From Octopus vulgaris (taxonomy: Eukaryota), in NCBI GenBank assembly GCA_951406725.2, contig OX597833.1, positions 54,064,001 to 54,128,000 of the forward strand: a stretch of DNA of 64,000 bases, read 5' to 3'. The position numbers were made by a program, and so were the translations under genes. Shown one piece after another: positions 965 to 49,635 of the stretch. Numbering within the stretch: position 1 is the stretch's first letter; every line of letters begins with the position of its first letter. Under the pieces are notes generated by a model that made no database searches, was not told where the DNA came from, and saw only the letters and a program-made list of their open reading frames with translations.

Positions 965-1040
965 ATAGCCAAGATAAAACTCTGAGTTTCGGATGCCGAA
1001 GTGGAAATCCACAACACCATCTCTTCAGTTATCTGGCCAT
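965..1040 (-). ncRNA. Type-I hammerhead ribozyme (family A)
   Basis: Minus: ATGGCC AGATAA-CTGAAGA-GATG..GTGG attt CCAC..CATC C-GAAA-CTC A GAG-TT-TTATCT t GGCTAT. Stem I 6+6 bp, intact core, stem III with 1-nt loop, GUU site. Confidence 0.75.
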
Positions 1041-4309: not shown

Positions 4310-4770
4310 AATTTTTGGTTGATAATTGGTGGGTCGTACCCCACAACAAGATGCTCTGTGAAACATTTCATGCATACATCAACATAGAATTCAATGATGA
4401 AAACAAGGACAGCCTACACAGTTGGATCTAGCCATGTACAAAGGCGACACAATCATATGCGTCTACACAGTTCACCGCTTGAACTCCAAATGCTTCCACC
4501 TGATGGTCTTACTTCATGTCATTAAGGGACCAACCTCCTTCGATGACCTTTGCACGGTGGACGACCACTTATGCATCACTTTCAAAGATGCTTGCTCCAG
4601 ATGGATACAGATGACCAATATGATAATTCACTTGAAGAGGCCTCTCTGTATCCATTCTCCGTACAAGCTCTGACACCTTTCTGCAATAATGTTGGTTTTC
4701 TGTAATAACCTAACAGACACACATTCACTTTGGAATAAATACAAAGACTCAATGTACCATGAAATTTTGC
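4310..4770 (+). pseudogene. Helitron Rep/Hel protein fragment (deleted, frameshifted)
   Basis: Translated motifs VDNWWVVPHNKMLCETFHAYINIEF, VYTVHRLNSKCFHLMVLLHVIKGPTSFDDLCTVD..TFKDAC and SLWNKYKDSM resemble the conserved Helitron RepHel blocks VDNRWVVPYN..AHINVE and RLLLH.V.GPTSF.DLRTV. Confidence 0.85.
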
Positions 4771-4774
4771 TGCT

Positions 4775-5048
4775 CTATCTCTATCTATCCGCTCAGCCGA
4801 AGTTGACTCTCGGTTACTCCATGGATCAGTGTCCTCCAGTCATTTCTATCCTGGGCCGCTTCTTTCAGACTGGCTATGTCCATTCCGGTATCACTCTTGA
4901 TGGTGTCAAGCCAGCGGGTTCTTGGTCAGCCTCTTCCTCTCTTGCCACTGACCATTCCAAGCATGATGCTCTTCTCCAGGGATTTTCTCCTCATAATATG
5001 ACCAAAATATGCCAATCCATGCTTGGTGATCCTAGCTTCTAGTTAGCA
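4775..5048 (-). mobile_element. RTE (BovB-like) LINE ORF 3' end
   Basis: Minus translation ..LAYFGHIMRRKSLEKSIMLGMVSGKRGRG*PRTRWLDTIK..DRNDWRTLIHGVTESQLRLSG*; short (ATAG/AG) tail. Confidence 0.85.
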
Positions 5049-5607: not shown

Positions 5608-6100
5608 GATCATCATCATCATTGTTCGACCGTGGTCGAGACAATGGAATTTACCATGCTACGCCAGACTTCACGGTCCATCATTGCATTACGGAGGTCC
5701 TGTTGCTGGATGCCTGTATCCCTGGAGATTACATCAGGGTAGGAGAGTGTGCGCCCTCTGGTATTGCGAGTAGATGGCTTCCAGAGGAGAAGAGCAGAAA
5801 TTACCTCGTTTTCAGCTCTACAACAATGTCCAGCAAACTGGACTCTCATACCTTTCACAAGAGATGACAGAGGTGGTAGTTTCCCATATATTTGCATTTT
5901 GGTTGGATGACGCTTCCACGAGAGATTTTGAGCTCTCATGAGGAGGCGAGTGTAGGTTCCATCCAACCGCCTCTCAAGCTTCTTTGATAACATCCAGGTT
6001 TCTGAGCCATATAGTAGAATTGGTTCAACTGTGGCTTTGAAGATTTCAAGTTTGAAGTCTCTACTTAGATTTGATGACCAGATCTTATGCATGTCATAAG
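5608..6100 (-). mobile_element. RTE-type LINE ORF C-terminus, 5'-truncated
   Basis: ORF 5619-6107 contains IFKATVEPILLYGSETW..QFAGHC..DREVWR (post-RT region); (TGA)n tail right after the stop. Confidence 0.85.
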
Positions 6101-6549
6101 ATGACATGCATCAATGGATGCTTATTCTCTCAGTATTCCAGACAGAAATGAAGACGTCTGTCCCGATTGCCTCATTCTCAGAGAAACGTTCTACGGCATC
6201 CACAGACTCAAACATTACATTGCTGAAAACAAGCCCCTTTCTGAATTCTGATCAAACTGATGTATACAGTTTCATCCCTGGAAACATCTACACACGCACT
6301 GGTGGAATCAGAGAGAGAGTGTTTGTAAGTGTGTGCGTTTTTCTTTTGCTTGTTTCAGTCATTTGAGTGTAGCCATGCTGGAGCACCACCTTTTGCCAAT
6401 CAAATCAACCCCAGGACTTATTCTTTGTAAGCCTATTACTTATTCTATCAGTCTCTTTTGCTGAACCTCTAAGTTACGGCAATGTAAACATCCCAACATT
6501 TGTTGTCAAGGTGGGGGGCAAACACAGATGCACAAATACATACAAATAT

Positions 6550-25196: not shown

Positions 25197-26167
25197 CTCT
25201 CTATGGCAAATACCCAAAGAGAGCGAATAATGCAGATATCGACAAAGCCCTGACCCATCAATGGCTAATGGCCTCTGGCTTAAAATCTGAAACAGAGGGG
25301 TTTATCATAGCAGCTCAAGATCAATGCCTACCAACAAGAAACTACCAGGCCAACATATTAAAGATCAGAAGCAGTCCAACGTGTCGTGTATGCTAGCAAC
25401 AAAATGAAACCATTGACCATGTGGTCTCCAAGTGCAGTCTTCTAGCGCCTACAGAGTATCTCAACAGGCACGATAGAGCTGCACAATATATTCACTGGGT
25501 AATCTGTAAAAACCTGGATTTGCCCCATGAAAAAAACTGGTGGGAACACAAACCACCCCCAGTGCTTGAAAATGACCACATCTCACTCCTCTGGAACTTC
25601 ACCATTCAAACTGACAGGAAGATAGATGCAAATAGGCCAGACATCATATTGAAAGACTTCAAACAAAGAACATGCCTCCTCATTGATATGACTGTCCCAA
25701 TCGATATAAACGTATCTGTCAGGACCTACCAAAAACTGAGCAAATATAAAGATCTTGAAATAGAAATCAGTAAAATGTGGAAGCTGAAGACTAAAACAAT
25801 ACCTGTTGTCATAGGTGCCCTGGGAATGATAGCTAAAGGGGCTGATAGCTACCTAACTCAGATACCAGGAAACCCAAAAATGGCAGAAGTTCAAAAGATA
25901 GTGCTCATGGGAACTGCTCATATCCTACGCAAAATACTCTCTATGTAACCTCAAGGTTTAAAACAACCATAATTTTCGGTTTAAAAAAAAAAAAAAAAAA
26001 AAAAAACTTTTTTTTTAGACATTCATTAGTACAACATCCCCACCCCCCAAATATATGGCACACTAGGCATAACAACAACATGAACTTCCAACCCTGTTGT
26101 CTCTTGAGGTCTCTGGGTGAGACTTGGAGCCAACTTGTACAAATATAAAGCAAAAGTCAAACATAGA
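25195..26167 (+). mobile_element. Dong/R4-clade non-LTR retrotransposon 3' end (CCHC knuckle + restriction-like endonuclease), 5'-truncated, in (TAA)n
   Basis: ..ETEGFIIAAQDQ..CRVC*..ETIDHVVSKC..RHD..NRPDII..LIDMTVP..KLSKYKDL; one in-frame TAG; (TAA)n on both flanks, the known Dong target. Confidence 0.9.
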
Positions 26168-27316: not shown

Positions 27317-28120
27317 AAGGCGGCGAGATGGCAGAAACGTTAGCACTCTGGGCGAAATGCTAAGCGGTATTTCGTCTGCCGTTACGTTCTGAGTTCAAAT
27401 TCCGCCGAGGCCGACTTTGCCTTTCATCCTTTCAGGGTCGATAAATTAAGTACCAGTTACGCACTGAGGTCGATGTAATCGACTTAATCCGTTTGTCTGC
27501 CCTTGTTTGTCCCCTCTGTGTTTAGCCCCTTGTGGGTAGTAAAGAAATAGGTATTTCGTCTGCCACTACGTTCTGAGTTCAAATTCCGCTGAGGCCGACT
27601 TTGCCTTTCATCCTTTCAGGGTCGATAAATTAAGTACCAGTTACGCACTGAGGTCGATGTAATCGACTTAATCCGTTTGTCTGCCCTTGTTTGTCCCCTC
27701 TGTGTTTAGCCCCTTGTGGGTAGTAAAGAAATAGATATTTCGTCTGCCACTACGTTCTGAGTTCAAATTCCTCCAAGGTCGACTTTGCCTTTCATCCTTT
27801 CGGGGTCAATAAATTAAGTACCAGCTACACACTGGAGTCGATGTAACCGACTTAATCCCTTTGTCTATCCTCGTTTGTTCCCTCTCTGTTTAGCCCCTTG
27901 TGGGCAATAAAGAAATACGAATCGTTAGCAATCAGGACAAAATACTTAGCGACATTTCGTCCGCCCTTACGTTCTGAGTTCAAATTGCACCGAAATCGAC
28001 TTTGCTTTTTATCCTTTCAGGGTCGATAATATCAGCACCAGTTGATCATTATGGTTAGAAATAATCGACTTAACCTCCCTCTCCCGAAATTGATGGCCTT
28101 GTGCCAAAATTTGAAACCAA
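27317..28120 (+). mobile_element. SINE family B: one head plus tandem ~185-bp body repeats (3 full, 1 diverged)
   Basis: tatttcgtctgcc..gagttcaaattcc..gccccttgtggg..aaagaaata repeated. Confidence 0.9.
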
Positions 28121-28439: not shown

Positions 28440-28733
28440 TTTTGTTTGTTCCTTCTCAAACCATGCCTGGCTCATAAGGGCCGGTTTCCTGGTTTCTTGG
28501 CGTATAGGTTCCCCACCTGGATGGGATGCCGGTCCATCGCAGGTGAGCTGCAAGATGCAGGAGGAAAGGGTGAGAGAAAGTTGTGGCAAAAGAGTCAGCA
28601 GAAGTTCGCCATTACTTTCTGCCGGAGCCACGTGGAGCTTAGGTGCTTTTGCTCATAAACACACATATCACCCAGTCTGAGATTTGAACCTGCGATCCCT
28701 CGACCGCGAGTTCGCTGCTCTAACCACTAGGCC
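28440..28733 (-). mobile_element. tRNA-derived SINE (family C head, different tail) inserted in an RTE fragment
   Basis: Near-identical to 36435-36736; splits the RTE motif RKTWNEV|VKHDL. Confidence 0.85.
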
Positions 28734-29520
28734 ATGGTGAAGCATGATCTTTGAATGCTGGGAAGAGGTAGGCCCAGGAAGATATGGGACGACATGGTGA
28801 AGCAAGGTCTTCAAATGTTGGGAAGAGATAGACCCAGGAAGGCATGGGACGACATGGTGAAGCACAATCGTCGAATGTTTGGAAGAGATAGACCCAGGAA
28901 GACATGGGACGACACGGTGAAGTACGATCTTTGAATGTTGGGAAGAGATGGTTCCAGGAAGATATAGGATGACATAGTGAAGTATAATCTTTGAATGTTG
29001 GGAAGAGATAGACCCAGGAAGGCATGGGATGACATGGTGAAGCAAGATTTTCGAATGTTTGGCAGTGATGGACCCAGCAAGATACGGGACGACATGGAGA
29101 AGGATGATCTTCGAATGTTGAGAAGAGATGGACCCAGGAAGACATGGGATGACATAGTGAAGTACGATCTTCGAATGTTGGGAAGAGATAGACCCAGAAA
29201 GGCATGGGACGACATGGTGAAGTACGATCTTCGAATGTTGGGAAGAGATAGACCCAGGAAGGCATGGGACGACATGGTGAAGCACGATCATTGAATGTTG
29301 GGAAGAGGCAGACCTGGGAAGACATGGGGCAACATGGTGAAGCATGATCTTCGAATGTTGGGAAGGGGTAGACCCAGGAAGACATGGGATGACATGGTAA
29401 AGCATAATCTTCGAATGTTGGGAAAAGGCAGTCTCAGGAAAACAGGGGACGACATGGTGAAGCACGATCTTTGAATGTTTGGAAGTGATGGACCCAGGAA
29501 GACATGAGATGAGGTGGTGA
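28734..29520 (+). repeat. 13 x 60-bp minisatellite derived from the RTE ORF C-terminal motif GRGRPRKTWDEVVKHDLRML
   Basis: Exact 60-bp period; continues into RTE ORF end and UTR to ~29850. Confidence 0.92.
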
Positions 29521-29917
29521 AGCGTGGTCTTTGAATATCAGGTCTCATGGAGATGATGACAAGCAATCAAGACCTTTGGCGATTTGCTGTGCTTGGGATG
29601 ACTTGTCAAGCCAAGTGAAATCCTAGTCATGGCCAGTGCTGGGGACACATAAAAGGCACCCATGCCAGTGACACGTAAAAGGAATCTACTACACTCTTGG
29701 AGCGGTTGGTGTCAGGAAAGCATCCAGCCCTTGAAACCAAGCCAGATCAGACTGGAACCTGGTACAGCTCTCTGGCTTAGCAATTCCAGTCAAACTATCA
29801 AACCCATTGCCAGCATAGAAAGCAAATACAAAATGATGATGATGATGATGATACATCATATACAAATGTGTTATATTCCAATAAAAAGTTCACTTTTGCC
29901 ATTCTGTAAAATAAACT

Positions 29918-33125: not shown

Positions 33126-33849
33126 GTGTGTGTGTGTGTGTGTGTGTGTCTGTTTGTTCTCCCAACCATCACATGACAACCAATGCTTGTGTGTTTATGT
33201 CCCCAGAACTTAGCAGTTCAGTAAAAGCAACCGATAGAATAAGGCTTACAAATGACAAGTCCTGGGGTTGATTTGTTCAACTAAAACTTTTTAAGGTGGT
33301 GCTCCAGCATGGCCACAGTCAAATGACTGAAACAAGTAAAAGAATGAAGGAATAAAACAACAGTTTCAACATCATCATGAACCAACAATGGAGGCCTCGA
33401 CATGGTAATTGGATCTGCTAGAAATAGCCACTATATCCCATCTCAAGTCATACTCTACCATTCTCAATATAGAAGGATACATTGAATAATGTAATCCCTG
33501 ATATGTAAACTACAACTTTTTCTTAGACTGTTTTATTAGTATTGGTACTAAGCCAACTATTTACTCTTTTAGTAGTCTTGGTAATTTGTCTATGGTCAGA
33601 GTGGAGCACTACACTGATAATATTAAGAGCAGATTATGATCACAACCTGCTATTTATAAATTTATAAATGTTTACCTTAGTTCAGACCAAATGTTTATAA
33701 AATTTAATTACAACAGTTTTAATGCTTGAAACATAGTAAGAAGGAGGAGGAAAAAGAAAAGAAGAAGGGGGGAAAAAAGAGGAAATGAAGGAGGAGGATA
33801 CAAAGATGAAGGCTAGGAGTAGGAGGGAGAGAAGCAAAAAAAAGGGAAG

Positions 33850-34343
33850 TGCTCCAGCATGGCCACAGTCCAATGACTGAAACAAGTAAAAGAGTAAAAG
33901 AGTCCCGAGATTGATTTGTTTGACTAAAACCCTTCTGGGCAGTACTCCAGCATGGCCACAGTCCAATGACTGAAACAAGTAAAAGAGTCCCGAGATTGAT
34001 TTGTTTGACTAAAACCTTTCTGGGCAGTACTCCAGCATGGCCACAGTCCAATGACTGAAACAAGTAAAAGAGTAAAAGAGTCCCGAGATTGATTTATTTG
34101 ACTAAAACCCTTCTGGGCAGTACTCCAGCATGGCCACAGTCCAATGACTGAAACAAGTGAAAGAGTAAAAGAGTCCCGAGATTGATTTGTTTGACTAGAA
34201 ACCCTTCTGGGCAATACTCCAGCATGGCCACAGTCCAATGACTGAAACAAGTAAAAGAGTCCCGAGATTGATTTTTTTTGACTAAAATCCTTCTGGGCAG
34301 TACTCCAGCATGGCCACAGTCCAATGGCTGAAACAAGTGAAAG
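33850..34343 (+). repeat. Tandem array, 6 x ~86-94 bp, of the SINE A 3' tail
   Basis: ctccagcatggccacagtccaatgactgaaacaagt..gagtcccgagattg repeated. Confidence 0.9.
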
Positions 34344-35051
34344 ACGAAAGATAAAACATTTTCCCCCCAACACTGTAGCTTGACCGTTCAAGGCACATTT
34401 GCAGAATTGCATTTGGAGCATGAAAATATCAAGATCAATAATTGTTGAATAAGATTCAAGCCATCATTCACTCAGATTTGCAGCCCAGAATCCAACTGAA
34501 AGTCATTGTGGGAGGAAGATCTGAATCACTTTAGGTTTGCTTAAATCTTATACAGGAGAAGTAGAAAATTCTGTAATAAACTGTTTACCGTATGTAAATC
34601 GTCTCATAATGAATGGTATAAGAATGGTTATTTCCACTGATCTTAGAAAAGGAGACATTACACGTATTGCTTTACAGATGGACATTTGCGTTGAGAGGAT
34701 CCTATGGCTTGCGTGTTATATTATATTCTGACCTGACTTATGTCTGATATTACAAATCTGGTGTTCAATTGTGAGATAAGCTTCAGATGTCTGAATTAGA
34801 TAGGACCCCAAAGAACCTTTACAGTCATATTAAATTTCCTTCGTATTCATGGTAAGTGGTTGTATCTCATCTATTATACTGAAACATCAAGGACTTTATC
34901 ATGATTGTGGACCAACCACAATAATGATTACTGTGTGATATATTAGATTTAATAACTCCCAGTGTGTTACCATAATCTCTAACTGATATCCTTGACATGA
35001 TATCATTGTAAAAATTGTTTCATATAATGATCCCTAATATTTCAGCTGTGA

Positions 35052-40639: not shown

Positions 40640-41114
40640 ATCATCATCATTCTCATCATCATTTAACGTCTGCTTTCCATGCTAGCATGGGTTGGACGAT
40701 TTGATTGAGGACTGGTGAACCAGATGGCTGTGCCAGGCTCCAATCTGATCTGGCAGAGTTTCTACAGCTGGATGCCCTTCCTAACACCAACCACTCTGAG
40801 AGTGTAGTGGGTGCTTTTACGTGTCACCGGCATGGGGGCCAGTCAGGCAGTACTGGCAATGACCTTGCTCAAATCTTTTTACACGTGCCACCGGCACAGG
40901 TGCCAGATGAGGCTGGCAATGGCTATGATCGGTTAGTGCTTTTTACGTGCCACCAGCACAGAAGCCAGTCAAGGTGGCGCTGGCATCGGCCACATTCAGA
41001 TGGTGCTTTTTACATGCCACTGGCACAGGTATCACAGCTACAATTTCCATTTGATTTTTTGATGTTGATGTACTTGACTCAATAGGTCTCCTCAAGCACA
41101 GTGTGTGTATATAT

Positions 41115-41152
<38 letters not shown>

Positions 41153-41360
41153 TTAACGTTCGCTTTCCATGCTAGCATGGGTTGGACGATTTGACGGAGG
41201 ACTGGTGAACCAGATGGCTGTGCCAGGCTCCAATCTGATCCGGCAGAGTTTCTACAGCTGGATGCCCTTCCAAACACCACCCACTCTGAGAGTGTAGTGG
41301 GTGCTTTTACGTGCCACCGGCACGGGGGGCCAGTCAGGCAGTACTGGCGACGGCCACGAA
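40640..41360 (-). mobile_element. Two tandem RTE 3'UTR fragments
   Basis: (ATC)n tails followed by ttaacgt..gctttccatgctagcatgggttgg.. Confidence 0.8.
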
Positions 41361-42274
41361 AAAATCATGTGTGTGTGTGTAGGTAGGGGGGTGCCCATTT
41401 TCCATGCTGGCATATGTACAACAAGCTTCTTCGCTGTCTCCGTTTACTAAATTCTGCTGAAACAGCATTGGTTGGCCAAAAATTATGATAGATAACACTT
41501 TTCCCTGGCTCTGAGCTCTGCCACATAACTGTGAGCCAAATGGTTACAAAGCATTCTTTTTCACTGCAAAGCCATGTCCTTTTAATGATGAGTATATTAA
41601 TAATACAATCTGACAGATATAATAAAAATAATAATAATAAAAAATACAGAAAACTATAACCAATTTTTCTATGTAATCAGATTTACAAATAAATCTATAA
41701 TAACATATTTGCTTTTAATTTAAAAATAAGGAAGTTTTTTTAAAAAAAAAAACGAAATAATTAAAATATAAGATATTATCTGCTAATCAAAAAGTTCCAT
41801 ACACAAAGTCAAGAATTTTTAATTGGGTATAATAAAATACTGCATTGTTGTTGCTGTTGTTATTGTTGTGTTGCTGTTGTTGTTGTTGTTGCTGCTGCTG
41901 TTGTTGCTGCTGTTGTTGCTGTTGTTGTTGTTGTTGTTTTGCCCTAGGTCAGGCTTGCTTGTTGTCTTGAAATTACTTGGATAACCAATGCTCGGCTAAT
42001 GAAACTCCGGATGGATTAAACCCGTGACATTTAAGTAGCCGGTCGAGTAAATAGATGCGAGTCACTAATCTATGATCATCAGCATCGTCATCATCGTCAT
42101 CATCATCACCATCATCATCATCATTGTCATTGCCATCATCATCTTCATTTTACAAGAAGGGTGCTGCAAAGTTCCTGTCTTGGATTAAAAGAAAATACAG
42201 GAGGATTAGTTAATCCTGGTTCTCTTATATGAACAAATTCATTCTTATTGCGCTGTGAACGACAGATTTGGTGT

Positions 42275-42321
42275 TCATAACTGATGAAGCAAAAGGACGC
42301 AGAAATGCATGTGTCCTATAA
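42275..42321 (+). ncRNA. Type-I hammerhead-like motif (family H, copy 1)
   Basis: TCATAA-CTGATGA-aGC aaaaggac GCa-GAAA-TGC AT GTG-TC-ctataa; GUC site, stem I imperfect in this copy. Confidence 0.5.
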
Positions 42322-42546
42322 TCCAGTGACATCATTTACAATGCAGTGTGTTTTGACACATGTCGTCTAGGAGGAGAAATTTTTTCTCAGAACTATTTCT
42401 GCCCCTGGAGGTCTGCCCACATTTCAGTGTGTTCAAACATGAAAGATATGAAGTTAAATGGTGCTTCTCCCTGGTGAACCAGACTGTACTCAGTTATTTT
42501 CTGCAACATCATCAGAGTAACAAAACCATTTACAGTTCTGATATAC

Positions 42547-42768
42547 TCTTTCTCTCTTTTACTCTTTTACTTGTTTCAGTCATTTGACTGCGGCCATGCT
42601 GGAGCACCGCCTTTAGTCGAGCAAATCAACCCTGGGACTTATTCTTTGTAAGCCCAGTACTTATTCTATCGGTCTCTTTTGCTGAACCGCTAAGTGACGG
42701 GGACGTAAACACACCAGCATTGGTTGTCAAGCAATGCTAGAGGGACAAACACAGACACACAAACATAT

Positions 42769-42801
<33 letters not shown>

Positions 42802-42963
42802 CATATATACGACAGGCTTCTTTCAGTTTCCGTCTACCAAATCCACTCACAAGGCTTTGGTCAGCCCGAGGCTATAGAAGAAGACACTTGCCCAAGATGC
42901 CACGCAGTGGAACTGAACCCGGAACCATGTGGTTGGTTAGCAAGCTACTTACCACACAGCCAC
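42547..42963 (-). mobile_element. Full-length SINE family A
   Basis: Homology to 8827-9228. Confidence 0.9.
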
Positions 42964-43001
42964 AAATTCATTCTTATTGCGCTGTGAATGACAGATTTTG
43001 T

Positions 43002-43052
43002 GTTCATAACTGATGAAGCAAAATGATGCAGAAATGCATGTGTTTTATGAGC
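43002..43052 (+). ncRNA. Type-I hammerhead-like motif (family H, copy 2)
   Basis: GTTCATAA-CTGATGA-aGC aaaatgat GCa-GAAA-TGC AT GTG-TT-TTATGAGC; 8-bp stem I, A.A at 10.1-11.1. Confidence 0.6.
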
Positions 43053-43727
43053 CAATGATATTGCTTACAGTCCAGCATGTTTTAACATGAAATTTCTCTC
43101 AGAACTATTTCTGCTGTTGAAGGTCTACCCACACTTCAGTGTGTTCAAACATAAATGAATTTAATTCCTCAAACATGAAAGATATGAAGTTAATACTTGA
43201 AAATAACATTAGAAACAAAATTACACTTTTTCTCTGGTGAACCAGACTGTACTATACCCAGTTATTTTCTGTAATATCAACAGAGTGACAAAGCATAAAG
43301 ACATAAAGACAAGACTACTAGACGCAGACTTCCCATTCAACTTACAACACCTTCAGAGCAGGTGTAAAGCATATGTTCTAGGTGTGCTTTATACCACCAA
43401 AATTGGTAAATTTTCTTTTAAATACTTTTGTTCTTGCAGTAGCATGATATAATCTAGTAGTAATTTGTTTTCATATCTACCAATTCACACTCTAAAACAT
43501 GATTAAATCAGCTTAAAATCGTATGATGTCTAGGAATAGCCTGAAGTTTGGTAAGTTCGTTTTTTGAGCAGCATAAATGTGGCTCTGTGCTAAGAAGTTT
43601 ACTTACCAACCACATTGTTTCTGGTTCAGTCCCACTGTGCGGCACCTTGGGTGTCTTCTGCTACAGCCCCAAGCCAACCAAAGCCTTGTGAGTGGATTTG
43701 GTAGGTGGAAATTGAAAGAAGCTCATC

Positions 43728-43758
<31 letters not shown>

Positions 43759-44284
43759 TGTATGTATGTATGTATGTATGTATGTATGTATGTATGTATA
43801 TATCTCTTATATAAAATCTGTTGTCTGTGTGTGTGAGTGTGTGTGTGTGTGTGTGTGTGTCTTCTCGGATCTTGGGCATCCTCCATCCGATTGCACTCAA
43901 ATTTGATATGTAGATACTGACGGTATCAAGGCGTGTATAAGTCATGAAAAAATCACAAAAATCGATTCCAGGTGAGAATGCAATCGATAAAGCCATTTTT
44001 GTCCTGCTTTTCTTCCATCAACCTGTACATAACTGCACCTTCCACTATATATTTAAAATTTATAAGTTTAAATTATTTAAATAATTTTTAAAATTTTAAC
44101 TTCTATATTTTTAAATTAATTTTATGTATTGGCTTATGTTTTTCACTGTTTGATTTGCATAATAGTGGTTTTATCTCTAATTTAAAATAATATAATATAA
44201 TATATCTATACTATAAAATTGGATTTAATCCTATATCTAATTTTTCCCTGTAAGTTTGGATTTATTCCCTAATATTATTATTAT

Positions 44285-44329
<45 letters not shown>

Positions 44330-44414
44330 TACTGTTTCATGATAGAAAGATCAACAAAAAGCGTACTCCATCTGGTAAGAGATAAATATTGTTTAATAGA
44401 TGCAGTTTATGATT

Positions 44415-44475
44415 TTATGCTGTACTAAAAGTTTCATATGTTGAGAAATACCTCAAACATATTCATCAGACACAA
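44415..44475 (-). ncRNA. Type-I hammerhead ribozyme (family D), imperfect stem I junction
   Basis: Minus: TTGTGT-CTGATGA-ATATGT t TGAG gtattt CTCA ACATAT-GAAA-CT ttt AG-TA-ca GCATAA; 10-bp stem II. Confidence 0.6.
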
Positions 44476-44702
44476 GACACATATCATATGATATGTGGTT
44501 TGTGCTGCCAAAAGGATGAAAGGCAAAGTTAACCTTAAACTCAGAATGTAACAACAGACAAAATGTTGCCAAACATTTCGCTCAGCATGCAAACAATTCT
44601 GCCAGCTAACCACCTTAATAATATGATGATGATGATGATGATGATGATGATCATCATCATCATCATCATAATAAAAATAACAACAACAACAGCAGCAGCA
44701 GC

Positions 44703-44741
<39 letters not shown>

Positions 44742-44813
44742 AATAATATGTAATAATAATAATAGTAATAATGATAGTAATAATGATAATAATAATAATA
44801 ATAATAATAATAA

Positions 44814-45655
44814 ATGCCCTGATGCAGTACCATGCACTGGCTCCCATGGCTTCTGATCTTAACTGATTGGCAGAGTTATCATCTACATGTTTTGTCTTGG
44901 TATAAAAGATGGGCTACAGCAAATACTCTGCTCAATACCACAGATTTGCTTGACAGTTGTTTGATCTTAACCAGTTGAGCATGTCCTTTGGTAGCTTGAT
45001 GATGTGTGCATTTCTGATCATGAGCAGAAGTAGAGCTGAGAGGAATTCTTTGGAGTTTGAGTAATTCACTTCTGGAAACGTGTTTCATTCAACATCCTTA
45101 AACAACCCTTATTCAGGGATCTTTTGAGTGTGATGGGCTACTGAACCTGAAGAAAAAATTCTAACTGGGCCCCATCTGCAAAGTCATGTGCTGTTTATCA
45201 CCATGTCACGCACATATGGTTGTAATGCATGTGCTAGGTATATCCTTATCAGTGAAAAGCCAAAATTAGAGGCATTTAACTGTTAATTAAAAAACTGAAA
45301 TATTTATTTCTTCACTGACCAAAGGCGATGAGCTGGTAGAAACGTTAGCACACTGGGCGAAATGCGTAGCCGTATTTCGTCTGCTGTTACGTTCTGAGTT
45401 CAAATTCTGCCTAGGTTGACTTTGCCTTTCATCCTTTCGGGGTCGATAAATTAAGTACCAGTTATGCACTGGTGCCGATGTAATCGACTTAATCCGTTTG
45501 TCTGTCCTTGTTTGTCCCCTCTGTGTTTAGCCCCTTGTGGGAAGTAAAGAAATAGGTGTACCCTTATCAGACAAGTAGTCATTATGGGTATGCTGGGCTT
45601 CGTATATTTGTACCCCAGTGTCACTTTGATGGCATGCACTGCTCTCTCACTCAAT
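44814..45655 (+). mobile_element. Second copy of the (TAA)n-embedded element, interrupted by an insertion containing SINE B (45320-45555)
   Basis: Reverse complement of 11997-12553; (TAA)n flanks. Confidence 0.75.
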
Positions 45656-45668
45656 AATAATAATAATG

Positions 45669-45714
<46 letters not shown>

Positions 45715-45998
45715 TAATAATAATAATAATTACATGATGCAGTGGCTCTCATGGCTTCTGATCTTAACTGATTGGAAGTGCTATCATGGTTTCACATTTT
45801 GGCACAAAGCCAGCAATTTCAGGAGAGAGGCTAAGTCAATTACACCAGCCCCAGTATTCAGCTGGTACTTACTACTTTACTCATCCCACCAAAAGTCGAC
45901 CTTGGTGGAATTTAAATGACAGACGAAATGGCATCAAACATTTTGCCTAGCTTTCAAATGATTTTGCCAGCACACCACCTTAATAGCTGTATATATAT

Positions 45999-46091
<93 letters not shown>

Positions 46092-46745
46092 GATACTTAT
46101 TCTTTCAGGGCTGTAATTTATTCAGTTTTTTTTTTTATCAGTTAATGATTTATGCTTCAAAAAAAAAAAGAAAATGAAGAAGAATTGAATGAGAACATTT
46201 GAAGATTCTGTGTTAATGAATTACATGGCTTTGTTATTCATTTCTTATGGATTATTGAAATCCATATTGCCACATGTGTTAACATAATCAATAACAAGTA
46301 GAAACGATTTTTATGCCTACCGTAGCTTATATGACAGAATCAAAGATTTTACAATGGAATGCCTTGTATATTGTTGTAGTAATTGTTATTGCTGTTGTTG
46401 TTGTTGTTGATGTTGTAGTTGTTGTTGTTGTGGTTGTTATTGTTATTGTTGTTGTGTTGTTTTGTTAGACTCGTCAGCCATCAAACTGACAAAATACCAG
46501 ACCCAACCCTAACACAAGATATTATGAGAGAAATAAAATTTATTGCCGCTCCTTCCTGCTCTTCGTTAATGAGCAGACAAAAAAAAGCTGGCATGGCCCG
46601 TGTGGTTAAGAAGCTTGTTTTGTAACCATATTGTTTCAGGTTCAGTCCTACGGTGTGGCACCTTGGGGTAAACTGTCTTCTATTATAAACACCAGGCCAA
46701 TTAAGGCCTCGTGAGTGACTTTGGCTGACAGAAACTGTATGGAAG

Positions 46746-47157
46746 GCGGTGAGCTGGCAGAAATGTTAGCATGCTGGGCATAAAGCTTAGCGGTATTTTG
46801 TCTGCTGTTATGTTCTGAGTTCAAATTCCCGCTGAGGTCGACTTTGCTTTTCATCCTTTCAGGGTCGATTAAATAAGTACCAGTTACGCACTGGGGTCAA
46901 TGTAATCGACTTAATCAGTTTGTCTGTCCTTGTTTGTCCCCTTTGTGTTTAGCCCCTTGTGGGCAATAAAGAAATAGGTATTTCACCTGTCGCTACGTTC
47001 TGAGTTCAAATTCTGCCGAGGTCGACTTTGCCTTTCATCCTTTCAGGGTCGATAAATTAACCAGTTATGCACCGGGGTCGATGTAATTGACTTGATTCCT
47101 TTGTCTGTCCTTGTTTGTCCTCTCTGTGTTTGGCCCCTTGTGGGCAATAAAGAAATA
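46746..47157 (+). mobile_element. SINE B dimer inserted in a SINE A copy (~46590-47540), 16-bp TSD agaaactgtatggaag
   Basis: TSD at 46730-46745 and 47158-47173 brackets two body units. Confidence 0.85.
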
Positions 47158-47180
47158 AGAAACTGTATGGAAGTCCAGCA

Positions 47181-47213
<33 letters not shown>

Positions 47214-47747
47214 ACGTATTGTGTGCACGTATTTGTGTATGTATGTATGAATGTATGTATGCACGTATGTATGTATATATGTGCATGTGTATGTGTGTGT
47301 GTGTGTGCGTGTGTGTGTGTATGCATCTCTGTGCCTACACTACTTAACAACCAGTTAAGTAGTGTTTACATCATCCCCATAACTTAACAGTTCAGCAAAA
47401 GACACTGATAAATAAGAAACAGGTTTAAAACAAACAAACAACAAAAAAATACTAGTGTCAATTCATTTGACTAAAAAATTCTTCAAGGTAGTGCCCCAGC
47501 ATGGCCAAAGTCTAATGAGTGGAACAAATAAAAGACAATAGATAATACTCCTTTGTCTGGTGAATTTATGGAAAATAAGGAAACGGTAAAGGCTGTTTCC
47601 ACTTTTACATGGCTGTTCTATGCAGAACAAATGTTACAATATTTTAACCCCAGAAAAACATCTTTTCCCACAGGCTAACAACACACAACTTGTGTCTGTT
47701 TTATTGAGAGCAAGGGAGCGAACAACTCCCACTCTAGCCAAGCAAAA

Positions 47748-47788
47748 CCAGTAGACTAGATTCTGGGTTCCTTTCCATCCTCAGTACG
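47748..47788 (-). ncRNA. Type-I hammerhead (family E, left arm)
   Basis: Minus: cGTA-CTGAGGA-TGG aaaggaac CCA-GAAT-CTAG-TC-TACTGG; palindromic CTAG stem III, A15.1->U. Confidence 0.55.
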
Positions 47789-47927
47789 AGACGTTTGCCT
47801 GCTAGAAATGACAGCTATTTGTCCTTGCTTGCAATATATATATTTCTTTACTACCCACAAGGGGCTAAACACAGAGGGGACAAGCAAGGACAGATAAACA
47901 GATCGGGCTGTAAATAATGTCACTGGA

Positions 47928-47974
47928 TTATAGGACACATGCATTTCTGCGTCATTTTGCTTCATCAGTTATGA
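47928..47974 (-). ncRNA. Type-I hammerhead-like motif (family H, copy 3)
   Basis: Reverse complement of 42275-42321. Confidence 0.5.
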
Positions 47975-48021
47975 ACATCAAATCTGTCATTCACAACGCA
48001 ATTAGAACGAGTTTGATCTTA

Positions 48022-48625
48022 TATATTTCTTTACTACCCTCAAGGGGCTAAATACAGAGGAGACAAACAGGGACAGACAAACGGATTAAGTCGATTACAT
48101 CGACCCCAGTGTGTAACTGGTACTTAATTTATCGACCCCGAAAGGATAAAAGGCAAAGTCGACCTCGGCGGAATTTGAACTCAGAACGTAACGGCAGGCG
48201 AAATACCTATTTCTTTATTGCCCACAGGGGGCTAAACACAGAGGGGACAAACAAAGACAGACAAACGGATTAAGTTGACTACATCAACCCCAGTGCATAA
48301 CTGGTATTTAATTTATCGACCCCGAAAGGATGAAAGGCAAAGTCGACCTCGGCGGAATTTGAACTCAGAACGTAACGGCAGGCGAAATACCAATTTCTTT
48401 ATTGCCCACAAGGGGCTAAACACAGAGGGAACAAACAAGGACAAACAAACGGATTAAGTCGATTATATCGACCCCAGTGCATAACTGGTACTTTATTTAT
48501 CGACCCCGGAAAGATGAAAGGCAAAGTCGACCTCGGCGGAATTTGAAGTCAGAATGTAATGGCAGACGAAATACGGCTACGCATTTTGCCAGACGTGCTA
48601 ACGTTTCTGCCAGCTCACCGCCTTG
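48022..48625 (-). mobile_element. SINE family B tandem trimer
   Basis: Three ~185-bp units with one head. Confidence 0.9.
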
Positions 48626-48958
48626 CTTACAATATATTGGGCGAATAACTGCCATCTCTATATAGCTGCGACTATCGGTTGTTGATTTTGTAACAAGCTA
48701 AAGTAGCCAGTGTTAAATCTCTGAGAGAAATTCGCATAGTAACAGAACTAAACGGTAAAGGCTGTTACGACTTTTACATGGCCATTCTATGCAGAACAAA
48801 TGTTACTAGAGATGGCAGCTATTTATCCAATGGGAATCTCTTTCAGAGATTTAAAACCAGCTATTTTAATTTGTTAGAAGATCAGCACCCGATAGTCGCT
48901 TCTTTATTTATACATTGCGAGCAAGGATGAATAGCTGTCATTTCTAGCAGGCAAACCT

Positions 48959-49003
48959 CCAGTACTGAGGATTGGAAGAAACCCAGAAAAAAAGGTATAC
49001 TGG
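48959..49003 (+). ncRNA. Type-I hammerhead (family E, right arm)
   Basis: CCAGTA-CTGAGGA-tTGG aagaaac CCA-GAAA-aaaagG-TA-TACTGG; perfect 6-bp stem I, decayed stem III. Confidence 0.6.
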
Positions 49004-49635
49004 TTTTGCTTTGCTGGAGTGGGAGTTGTTCGCTCTCTTGCTCTCAATAAAACAGACACAGGTTGTGTGTTGTTAGCCTGTGGGAAAAGATGTTTTCCTG
49101 GGTTTAAAATATAGACTCAAAAACTGAAATTTTGTGTGGAGGGGGTCTGGTTGATTATATCAACTCCAACGCTTCATGGATAAATATTTTATTGACCCTA
49201 AAAGGATGAAAGACAAAATCGACCTCAGGGATATTTGAACACAGAACATAAAGACAGATAAAATTCTTTTCAACATTTTGTCTGGCATACAACATTTTGT
49301 CTGGTACCCTAAATTCTTTCTACTATAAGCACAAGGCCTAGAATTTTGGGGGAAGGGGCCAGTCGATTACATCGACTCTAGTGCTAAGCTGGTACTTATT
49401 TTATCAATTCTAAAAGGATGAATGGCTAAGTTGACCTTGGCAGAATTTGAACTCAGAACAAAAGGACTGAAGAAATTCTACTAAGCATTTCACCTGGTGT
49501 TTTAATGCTTCAGCTAGCTCACTGTTTTACTGCCAAGTAATATTAGTACAATTAGAATTTGATTGAAATTGGCAGTTCAGAGGAAATGTGAAAAGGTAAG
49601 AAGTCACACTGGTAAATAGTTATAAAAGAAAAAAA

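Follow-up and report, generated by a model that had tools for sequence, protein, structure and literature searches.

A probable decayed dimer of a hammerhead-bearing repeat, interrupted by a SINE, in the genome of Octopus vulgaris

Introduction

Hammerhead ribozymes of Penelope-like elements (PLEs) that cleave as dimers have reportedly been described by Lunse et al. Three features mark the hammerheads in the pseudo-LTRs (pLTRs) of PLEs: one additional base separates positions 9 and 10.1, G10.1 and C11.1 form a conserved pair, and helix III is palindromic. The min-HHR descriptor published for them leaves room for an additional base at N10 and another at N11 (Cervera & de la Pena 2014; PMC4209133). 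According to the same paper, most of the motifs are solitary leftovers and some form close inverted pairs, the ribozymes are weak even as dimers, and the mutant control named in a legend has a disrupted 1.1-2.1 pair. In its alignment, AGAAA is found in one of 56 rows, which by the order of the text belongs to a bracovirus PLE, the column order of the PDF being unreliable. PLEs occur as complex tandem and inverted insertions, with a bias towards (TA)n targets in some clades (PMC8557442), and a 4-kb NRPS module has been transposed between PLE terminal repeats, with a target-site duplication (TSD) of 8 bp (PMC6431247).

The second group of closely comparable sequences are the non-LTR retrozymes. 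Those of mussels measure 350–390 bp (Cervera & de la Pena 2020; PMC7229834). Most retrozyme families consist of few units and many monomers, eight of nine Xenopus dimers remained uncut in vitro, and a pLTR origin of retrozymes has been argued for (Li et al., bioRxiv 10.64898/2026.07.22.740005). Octopus genomes contain Penelope LINE-type repeats and abundant SINEs (PMC8967140). Further sources used for comparison were PMC3088659, PMC6765202 and PMC6155905. Among the leading results of our literature searches, none described hammerheads of cephalopods or a retrozyme with a SINE inside it, and a catalogue of octopus hammerheads may be unpublished.

Here we describe a locus of Octopus vulgaris in which two copies of a hammerhead-bearing repeat bracket a SINE. 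It lies in a stretch of 64,000 nucleotides (assembly GCA_951406725.2, contig OX597833.1, positions 54,064,001 to 54,128,000, forward strand), hereafter called the window, to which all coordinates refer. An earlier note, made from the letters of this stretch alone, had interpreted the locus as a retrozyme-like tandem from which cleavage at two sites would release the SINE as the cargo of an RNA.

Results

The first unit (U1) occupies 42234-42527 on the plus strand and is followed by a linker of 18 nt (42528-42545); the second (U2), delimited by BLAST and alignment, occupies 42963-43296 on the same strand, which bears out the direct pair of ~310-bp units given in the earlier note. The two differ by 39 substitutions in 277 aligned bases (14%) and by six gap events, so that the tandem is real but its copies are old and unequal. 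Once the SINE is discounted, the head-to-tail period is 313 bp; there are two units only, and TRF reported no period of ~310 or ~730 bp at the locus among 150 of the 156 rows listed. BLAST of the units against the 64-kb window gave matches only at U1, U2 and a third, inverted copy (U3, 47909-48015, minus strand). The inversion, which the note had placed at ~47915-48010, was thus confirmed, but U3 is a fragment of 107 bp and not a full copy; it is surrounded by a tandem array of SINE B (184-bp period, three copies) and a 3' fragment of SINE B, together at 47841-48574 on the minus strand.

The units have a GC content of 0.33-0.39, and Pfam gave no match in the reading frames over them, so no coding capacity was found. 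Simple A-box, B-box and AATAAA patterns are missing from the plus strand of the units, which for the two boxes is a weak test, given that neither the A-box nor the strict B-box pattern picked up the SINE itself. All three copies are preceded by an ATATA stretch, in keeping with the (TA)n target bias of some PLE clades. That of U2 stands on the far side of the SINE, at the end of the linker and directly before the SINE tail; the SINE would therefore have entered at the old monomer junction, which the linker, with its weak likeness to the sequence 5' of U1, probably represents. Short tandem repeats (CATAAAGA-like) that recall a slippage tail are located at 43293-43315, directly after the end of U2. 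A CUGAUGA...GCAGAAA string on the minus strand at 42515, near the 3' end of U1, has neither a valid site nor a stem I, is absent from U2 and was set aside as probably due to chance.

The hammerhead core CUGAUGA...GAAA...NUH is present in all three copies, each time in the order CUGAUGA, A, a G-C/C-G stem, A, GAAA, a stretch of 8 nt, U, and then C or U. The type I motif of U1 (42273-42323, plus strand) has its C3 at 42281 and a GUC site after 42315, and that of U2 (43002-43052, plus strand) has its C3 at 43010 and a GUU site after 43044; the C3 of U3 is at 47968. The positions of both sites in the earlier note were correct, and the spacing, given there as ~730 nt, is 729 nt. An extra A between A9 and 10.1 and the pair G10.1-C11.1 are common to all three copies, and U2 has an extra A at both N10 and N11. 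The two A's that had been numbered 10.1 and 11.1 ('A.A 10.1-11.1') are better interpreted as extra N10 and N11, with G10.1-C11.1 as the pair; since the PLE descriptor permits both extra bases and the pair is found in every copy, the core represents a known PLE-type option. Helix III, with 8 nt between A15.1 and U16.1, is weak alone. It is self-complementary, in U2 as in the other copies, and between two copies all ten positions can pair, four of them as G-U (-8.8 kcal/mol). Stem II has only 2-3 bp across the copies (3 bp in U2) and is shorter than in typical min-HHRs; stem I (8 bp) is longer. No AATAAA was found downstream of the motif on the plus strand.

Rfam gave no match in the whole window at the gathering score, and the 48 matches with E ≤ 10 in 41000-49000 included no hammerhead family. 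A relaxed descriptor matched five times in the window, three times with at least six pairs in stem I. Block-wise dinucleotide shuffling (200 shuffles) yielded 0.01 matches per window with a stem I of at least six pairs and none with at least eight, which argues that the U2 motif is not a product of chance. With our own implementation of the published PLE descriptor, the strict form had no match, and a form allowing a helix III of up to 12 nt matched only U2 of the three copies.

The copies are distinguished by stem I. U2 has eight of eight pairs; U1 and U3 have five of eight and share the same three breaks (1.1-2.1, 1.5-2.5 and 1.7-2.7), which are all on the substrate (3') strand and include the pair next to the cut site. 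No compensating change accompanies the broken pairs in U1 and U3, and no covariation was seen among the copies (n = 3 only). The earlier statement that each unit carries a hammerhead is therefore right for the letters of the core, and for stem I it is right only in U2. The 8-nt 5' arms of stem I are identical in all three copies. Since the defect of U1 lies in the 3' substrate arm, a dimer in cis cannot rescue the U1 site: an exchange of the 5' arms leaves it equally broken and could help only the U2 site.

In none of the three copies is the minimum-energy fold a hammerhead. Constrained folding of the isolated motifs placed the hammerhead 26.8 kcal/mol (U1) and 9.4 kcal/mol (U2) above the free ensemble, compared with 3.8 and 10.9 kcal/mol for two other motifs in the window, where only the order of the values is meaningful because the energies ignore tertiary contacts and Mg2+ and were calculated without an active-ribozyme control. 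On the same relative scale, the penalties in a transcript of 821 nt were 11.1 kcal/mol for the U2 monomer, 17.7 kcal/mol for a dimer at the U2 site only and 27.4 kcal/mol for both cores. U1 has an alternative fold that blocks the core, with ~27 kcal/mol in its favour, and U2 is the only copy able to form the full hammerhead fold, with a competing rod fold favoured. The models predict that the U1 hammerhead is inactive. On the best reading, the locus would be cut at most weakly and only once, at U2 (after 43044), provided that the plus strand is transcribed, and for want of a second cut the 729-nt RNA would not be released. This contradicts the release of a ~730-nt RNA by cleavage at both sites, for which U1 lacks 1.1-2.1 and two more pairs, as well as the suggestion that the two motifs complement each other as a cis dimer, which the defective substrate arm of U1, the identical 5' arms and the cost of the dimer with both cores all oppose. 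The predicted circles had self-pairing z-scores of -1.88 (313 nt, without the SINE), -1.79 (729 nt), -1.09 (U1) and +0.59 (U2).

The space between the units (42546-42963) is filled by a copy of SINE A on the minus strand, in agreement with the antisense orientation given in the earlier note. It is clipped at the 5' end by ~9 nt relative to the other copies and has no flush TSD, and its head abuts the first base of U2 with an overlap of 1-3 nt. For dating, seven near-full copies of SINE A were aligned and a leave-one-out consensus was formed from the five youngest; the copy at the locus diverges by 4.3% from the consensus and by 5.0% from the nearest copy. A duplication made at the time of SINE insertion should have diverged by at most ~8.6%, under which the 39 differences in 277 bases between U1 and U2 have a probability of 0.0017, and the 34 differences in the 195 bases after the cut site one of 6e-5. 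Judged by divergence (4.3% from the consensus against 14% between the units), the SINE is younger than the split of U1 and U2, although divergence dates the lineages and not their juxtaposition.

SINE A is present at 25 loci in the window, one of which touches a copy of the repeat, and the rough chance that it lands in a target of 313-626 bp is 0.13-0.25. The flanks of the U1-SINE-U2 composite have no exact 6-mer in common, only A-rich near-matches; clear TSDs are not evident at five other copies of SINE A either. No second composite of this kind occurs in the window. Insertion of a SINE-bearing circle would have given identical units, each with its own SINE; instead, the parts after the cut site differ at 34 of 195 positions, and there is one SINE. 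The cargo capture envisaged in the earlier note is at odds with this picture, in which the SINE postdates a dimer of unequal units, the flanks show no exact TSD and the composite is single in the window.

The 107 bases shared by the three copies form a mosaic. Changes private to U3 cluster at positions 5-38 and those private to U2 mostly at 65-102, and only 2 of 3003 orderings are as extreme (one-sided). Up to the cut, 5 of 82 sites (6%) distinguish U1 from U2; beyond it the count is 34 of 195 (Fisher P = 0.013; P = 0.083 if the contrast is confined to positions 1-38). The 3' part of U1 is nearer to U3 (1 difference in 25) than to U2 (8 in 25). The best-kept stretch is that of positions 39-82, with 1-3 differences in 44. 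Most simply, U1 would be a chimera that resembles U2 in its 5' part and U3 from the ribozyme onward. The break would lie at positions 39-64; it may be as far along as 82 if U2 acquired two C-to-T changes afterwards. The mosaic does not fit a plain old duplication. Neighbouring copies that exchanged sequence by gene conversion where conservation is highest would account for it, and so would an earlier mixed dimer from which a monomer was cleaved, re-ligated and integrated anew.

The window as a whole is rich in repeats, and no host gene was recognized. ARAGORN found no genes in it, and an exact-pattern scan of GTDB genomes gave no matches, as expected for animal DNA. Reading frames at 5619-6110 (minus), 25397-25948 (plus), 17156-17518 (minus), 20002-20361 (minus), 63270-63557 (plus) and 4401-5042 (plus) have the look of protein fragments that we take to be those of LINEs, mariners and helitrons. 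The best match of the retroelement-like frame 25397-25945 is a protein of Octopus bimaculoides (84% identity, 97% cover). TRF identified head-to-tail arrays at 27366-27917, 46812-47157, 48024-48574, 33844-34344, 20374-20979 and 28733-29523, which comprise SINE B (184 bp), the 3' end of SINE A (86-93 bp) and retroelement-derived units of 304 bp and 60 bp.

At least three other hammerhead-like families are present in the window. A single-copy type I motif at 13560-13618 (plus) has a stem I of 6 bp, a GGC/GCC stem II, an extra A before GAAA, a near-palindromic helix III and UC at the site, and has the downstream AUCCAGU in common with U1 and U3, of which it is possibly a distant relative. Its fold penalty (3.8 kcal/mol) was the lowest of the motifs tested, and by this model it is, of all motifs in the window, the most promising candidate for an active ribozyme. 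A second single-copy type I motif at 972-1034 (minus) has a stem I of 6 bp, a stem II of 4 bp, UU at the site and one extra C before GAAA, which may alternatively be a bulge in stem II. Two inverted arms of ~205 bp (47639-47843, minus; 48909-49112, plus; 89% identical) each carry a decayed hammerhead core followed by AATAAA; inner direct and inverted pieces lie at 47581-47637 and 48660-48907, and the arms enclose both U3 and the SINE B array. By analogy, this structure resembles a complex pLTR insertion of a PLE. A weak Pfam match to a kinase at 48752-48874 (E 0.0077) lies inside the inverted-repeat element and was not accepted as an exon. An extra base just before GAAA occurs in three unrelated motif families, at 1028 (minus), at 13566 (plus), and at 42281 and 43010 (plus) with 47968 (minus), against one of 56 rows in the published PLE alignment, where it is a rare option (PMC4209133). 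It may be a lineage-wide variant and of interest to ribozyme specialists.

Discussion

The reading that we favour, with a probability of roughly 0.6, is that the locus is a head-to-tail dimer, now decayed, of a non-coding repeat of ~313 bp with a ribozyme of the PLE pseudo-LTR kind, and that a SINE invaded it later. A unit starting just after ATATA would first have given rise to a dimer, either through tandem insertion of the PLE type or through an old local duplication; stem I would then have been lost in the lineage of U1 and U3, the first 40-80 bases of U1 would have been replaced by or converted to the U2 type, and a copy of SINE A would finally have entered where the two monomers meet. 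In the ancestral element, adjacent cores may have paired their self-complementary helices III into a duplex of 10 bp and cut as a dimer. Today, a transcript of the plus strand would presumably undergo one slow cut at most, after 43044, and give neither a 729-nt monomer nor a circle. Pfam was applied to 131 frames, namely 121 of the 169 stop-free stretches near the loci (those omitted are mainly SINE or microsatellite) and ten longer frames elsewhere; as none of these frames matched a reverse transcriptase or GIY-YIG domain, and the 121 stretches thus showed no remnant of a PLE protein, it is the shape of the ribozyme that points to PLEs. The period of 313 bp and the GC content of 33-39% suit the definition of a retrozyme equally well, and the divergence of U1 and U2 over positions 1-82 (5/82), which is comparable to the age of the SINE, counts against our reading.

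A possible but doubtful alternative is that the repeat belongs to a genuine octopus family of non-LTR retrozymes, with arrays elsewhere and monomer circles of ~313 nt, and that the locus is a dead dimer into which the SINE came later; this differs from the favoured explanation only in origin. The SINE-free period falls within 150-450 bp and mussels have retrozymes of 350–390 bp, the GC content and the lack of detected coding capacity agree, few units with many monomers and dimers that remain uncut are usual among the families described, and the break in the mosaic falls within or beside the ribozyme. Against this stand the extra N10 of the core, which is of PLE type, the weak excess of pairing of the SINE-free circle over shuffles (z -1.88), the 14% difference between the units and the lack of an array in the window. 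The notion that the duplication was made when the SINE inserted, either as a very long TSD or as a repair-linked local copy of one dispersed element, would account for the position of the SINE head on the first base of U2, for the lack of a visible short TSD and for the small difference over the first 82 bases (five sites, 6%), which is close to the SINE age. It is quite improbable in view of the divergence overall (39/277, P = 0.0017 at 8.6%) and after the site (34/195, P = 6e-5), the six gap events and the 3' part of U1, which is nearer to U3 (1/25) than to U2 (8/25); its long-TSD form was rejected on the U1-U2 divergence.

That cleavage occurs at both ribozymes, singly or as a cis dimer, and that the 729-nt antisense-SINE RNA circularises and can be mobilised, as cargo capture would have it, we regard as barely credible. 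The geometry and the 729-nt spacing are correct, U2 is by its predicted fold a plausible ribozyme, the two strands of helix III can pair over 10 bp, and the module transposed between PLE terminal repeats with an 8-bp TSD provides a precedent (PMC6431247). However, the cargo circle is disfavoured because it needs a cut at the U1 site, which has lost its closing pair (1.1-2.1) together with two further pairs and to which a swap of 5' arms makes no difference; the dimer with two cores carries a penalty of 27.4 kcal/mol, the SINE is younger than the units, the flanks show no exact 6-mer TSD, the window has no second composite, and the 729-nt circle folds only at z -1.79. Just as little credence is given to the view that the core letters match by chance in an unrelated repeat whose real structure is a short GAAA-capped hairpin. 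It would agree with the lack of an Rfam match, the non-hammerhead minimum-energy folds of the three copies and the lack of covariation (n = 3), but not with the absence of matches with a stem I of at least eight pairs in 200 shuffles, the combination in U2 of an 8-bp stem I in exact register with a self-complementary helix III and the PLE-type extra base, or the conservation of positions 39-82 (1-3 differences in 44). Very improbable, too, is a still-active octopus retrozyme with a dimer-only hammerhead bearing extra N10 and N11, in which the chimerism of U1 would be the scar of a re-integrated, re-ligated circle and the locus would shed a 729-nt antisense-SINE circle. Were a cargo circle nevertheless real, ribozyme repeats would package another mobile element into circular RNA.

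Compared with described systems, the kinship with retrozymes seen in the earlier note was upheld, in that a head-to-tail repeat of ~313 bp that combines a type I hammerhead with a self-complementary helix III has the look of a non-LTR retrozyme or a PLE pseudo-LTR. The repeat shares with the PLE pseudo-LTR hammerheads (Cervera & de la Pena 2014; PMC4209133) the type I topology, the extra base after A9, the G10.1-C11.1 pair, the base that may be added before GAAA, a helix III whose self-complementarity suits cleavage as a dimer, and the occurrence of solitary, shortened and inverted copies. It differs from them in having no adjoining reading frame for a reverse transcriptase or endonuclease (121 of 169 stretches), a stem II of 2-3 bp, a longer helix III and, in two of the three copies, a broken stem I; a stem I of at least 3 bp from the core combined with a stem II of at least 3 bp is found in U2 but not in U1 or U3. 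With the non-LTR retrozymes (Cervera & de la Pena 2020, PMC7229834; Li et al., bioRxiv 10.64898/2026.07.22.740005) it has in common a non-coding, ~313-bp head-to-tail unit with a GC content below 50% (0.33-0.39) and a type I core in each unit. In contrast to them, the locus is a dimer only, diverged by 14% and interrupted by a SINE, and instead of a complete type I hammerhead in at least two consecutive units there is one complete ribozyme, that of U2, among the three copies.

Like the cargo carried by PLE repeats (PMC6431247), the SINE is foreign sequence between two terminal repeats of hammerhead type, but in the octopus the cargo is younger than its brackets and neither a TSD nor a second copy was found; the brackets, far from near-identical, are 14% apart, and the window has one composite. 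By description only, SINE A can be likened to the tRNA-derived OK, OR1 and OR2 SINEs of octopus (PMC4758252), being an abundant element of ~400 bp with a short-repeat tail. The locus thus appears as ordinary transposon debris, one decayed case of the PLE- or retrozyme-type hammerhead repeats that are known across animals.
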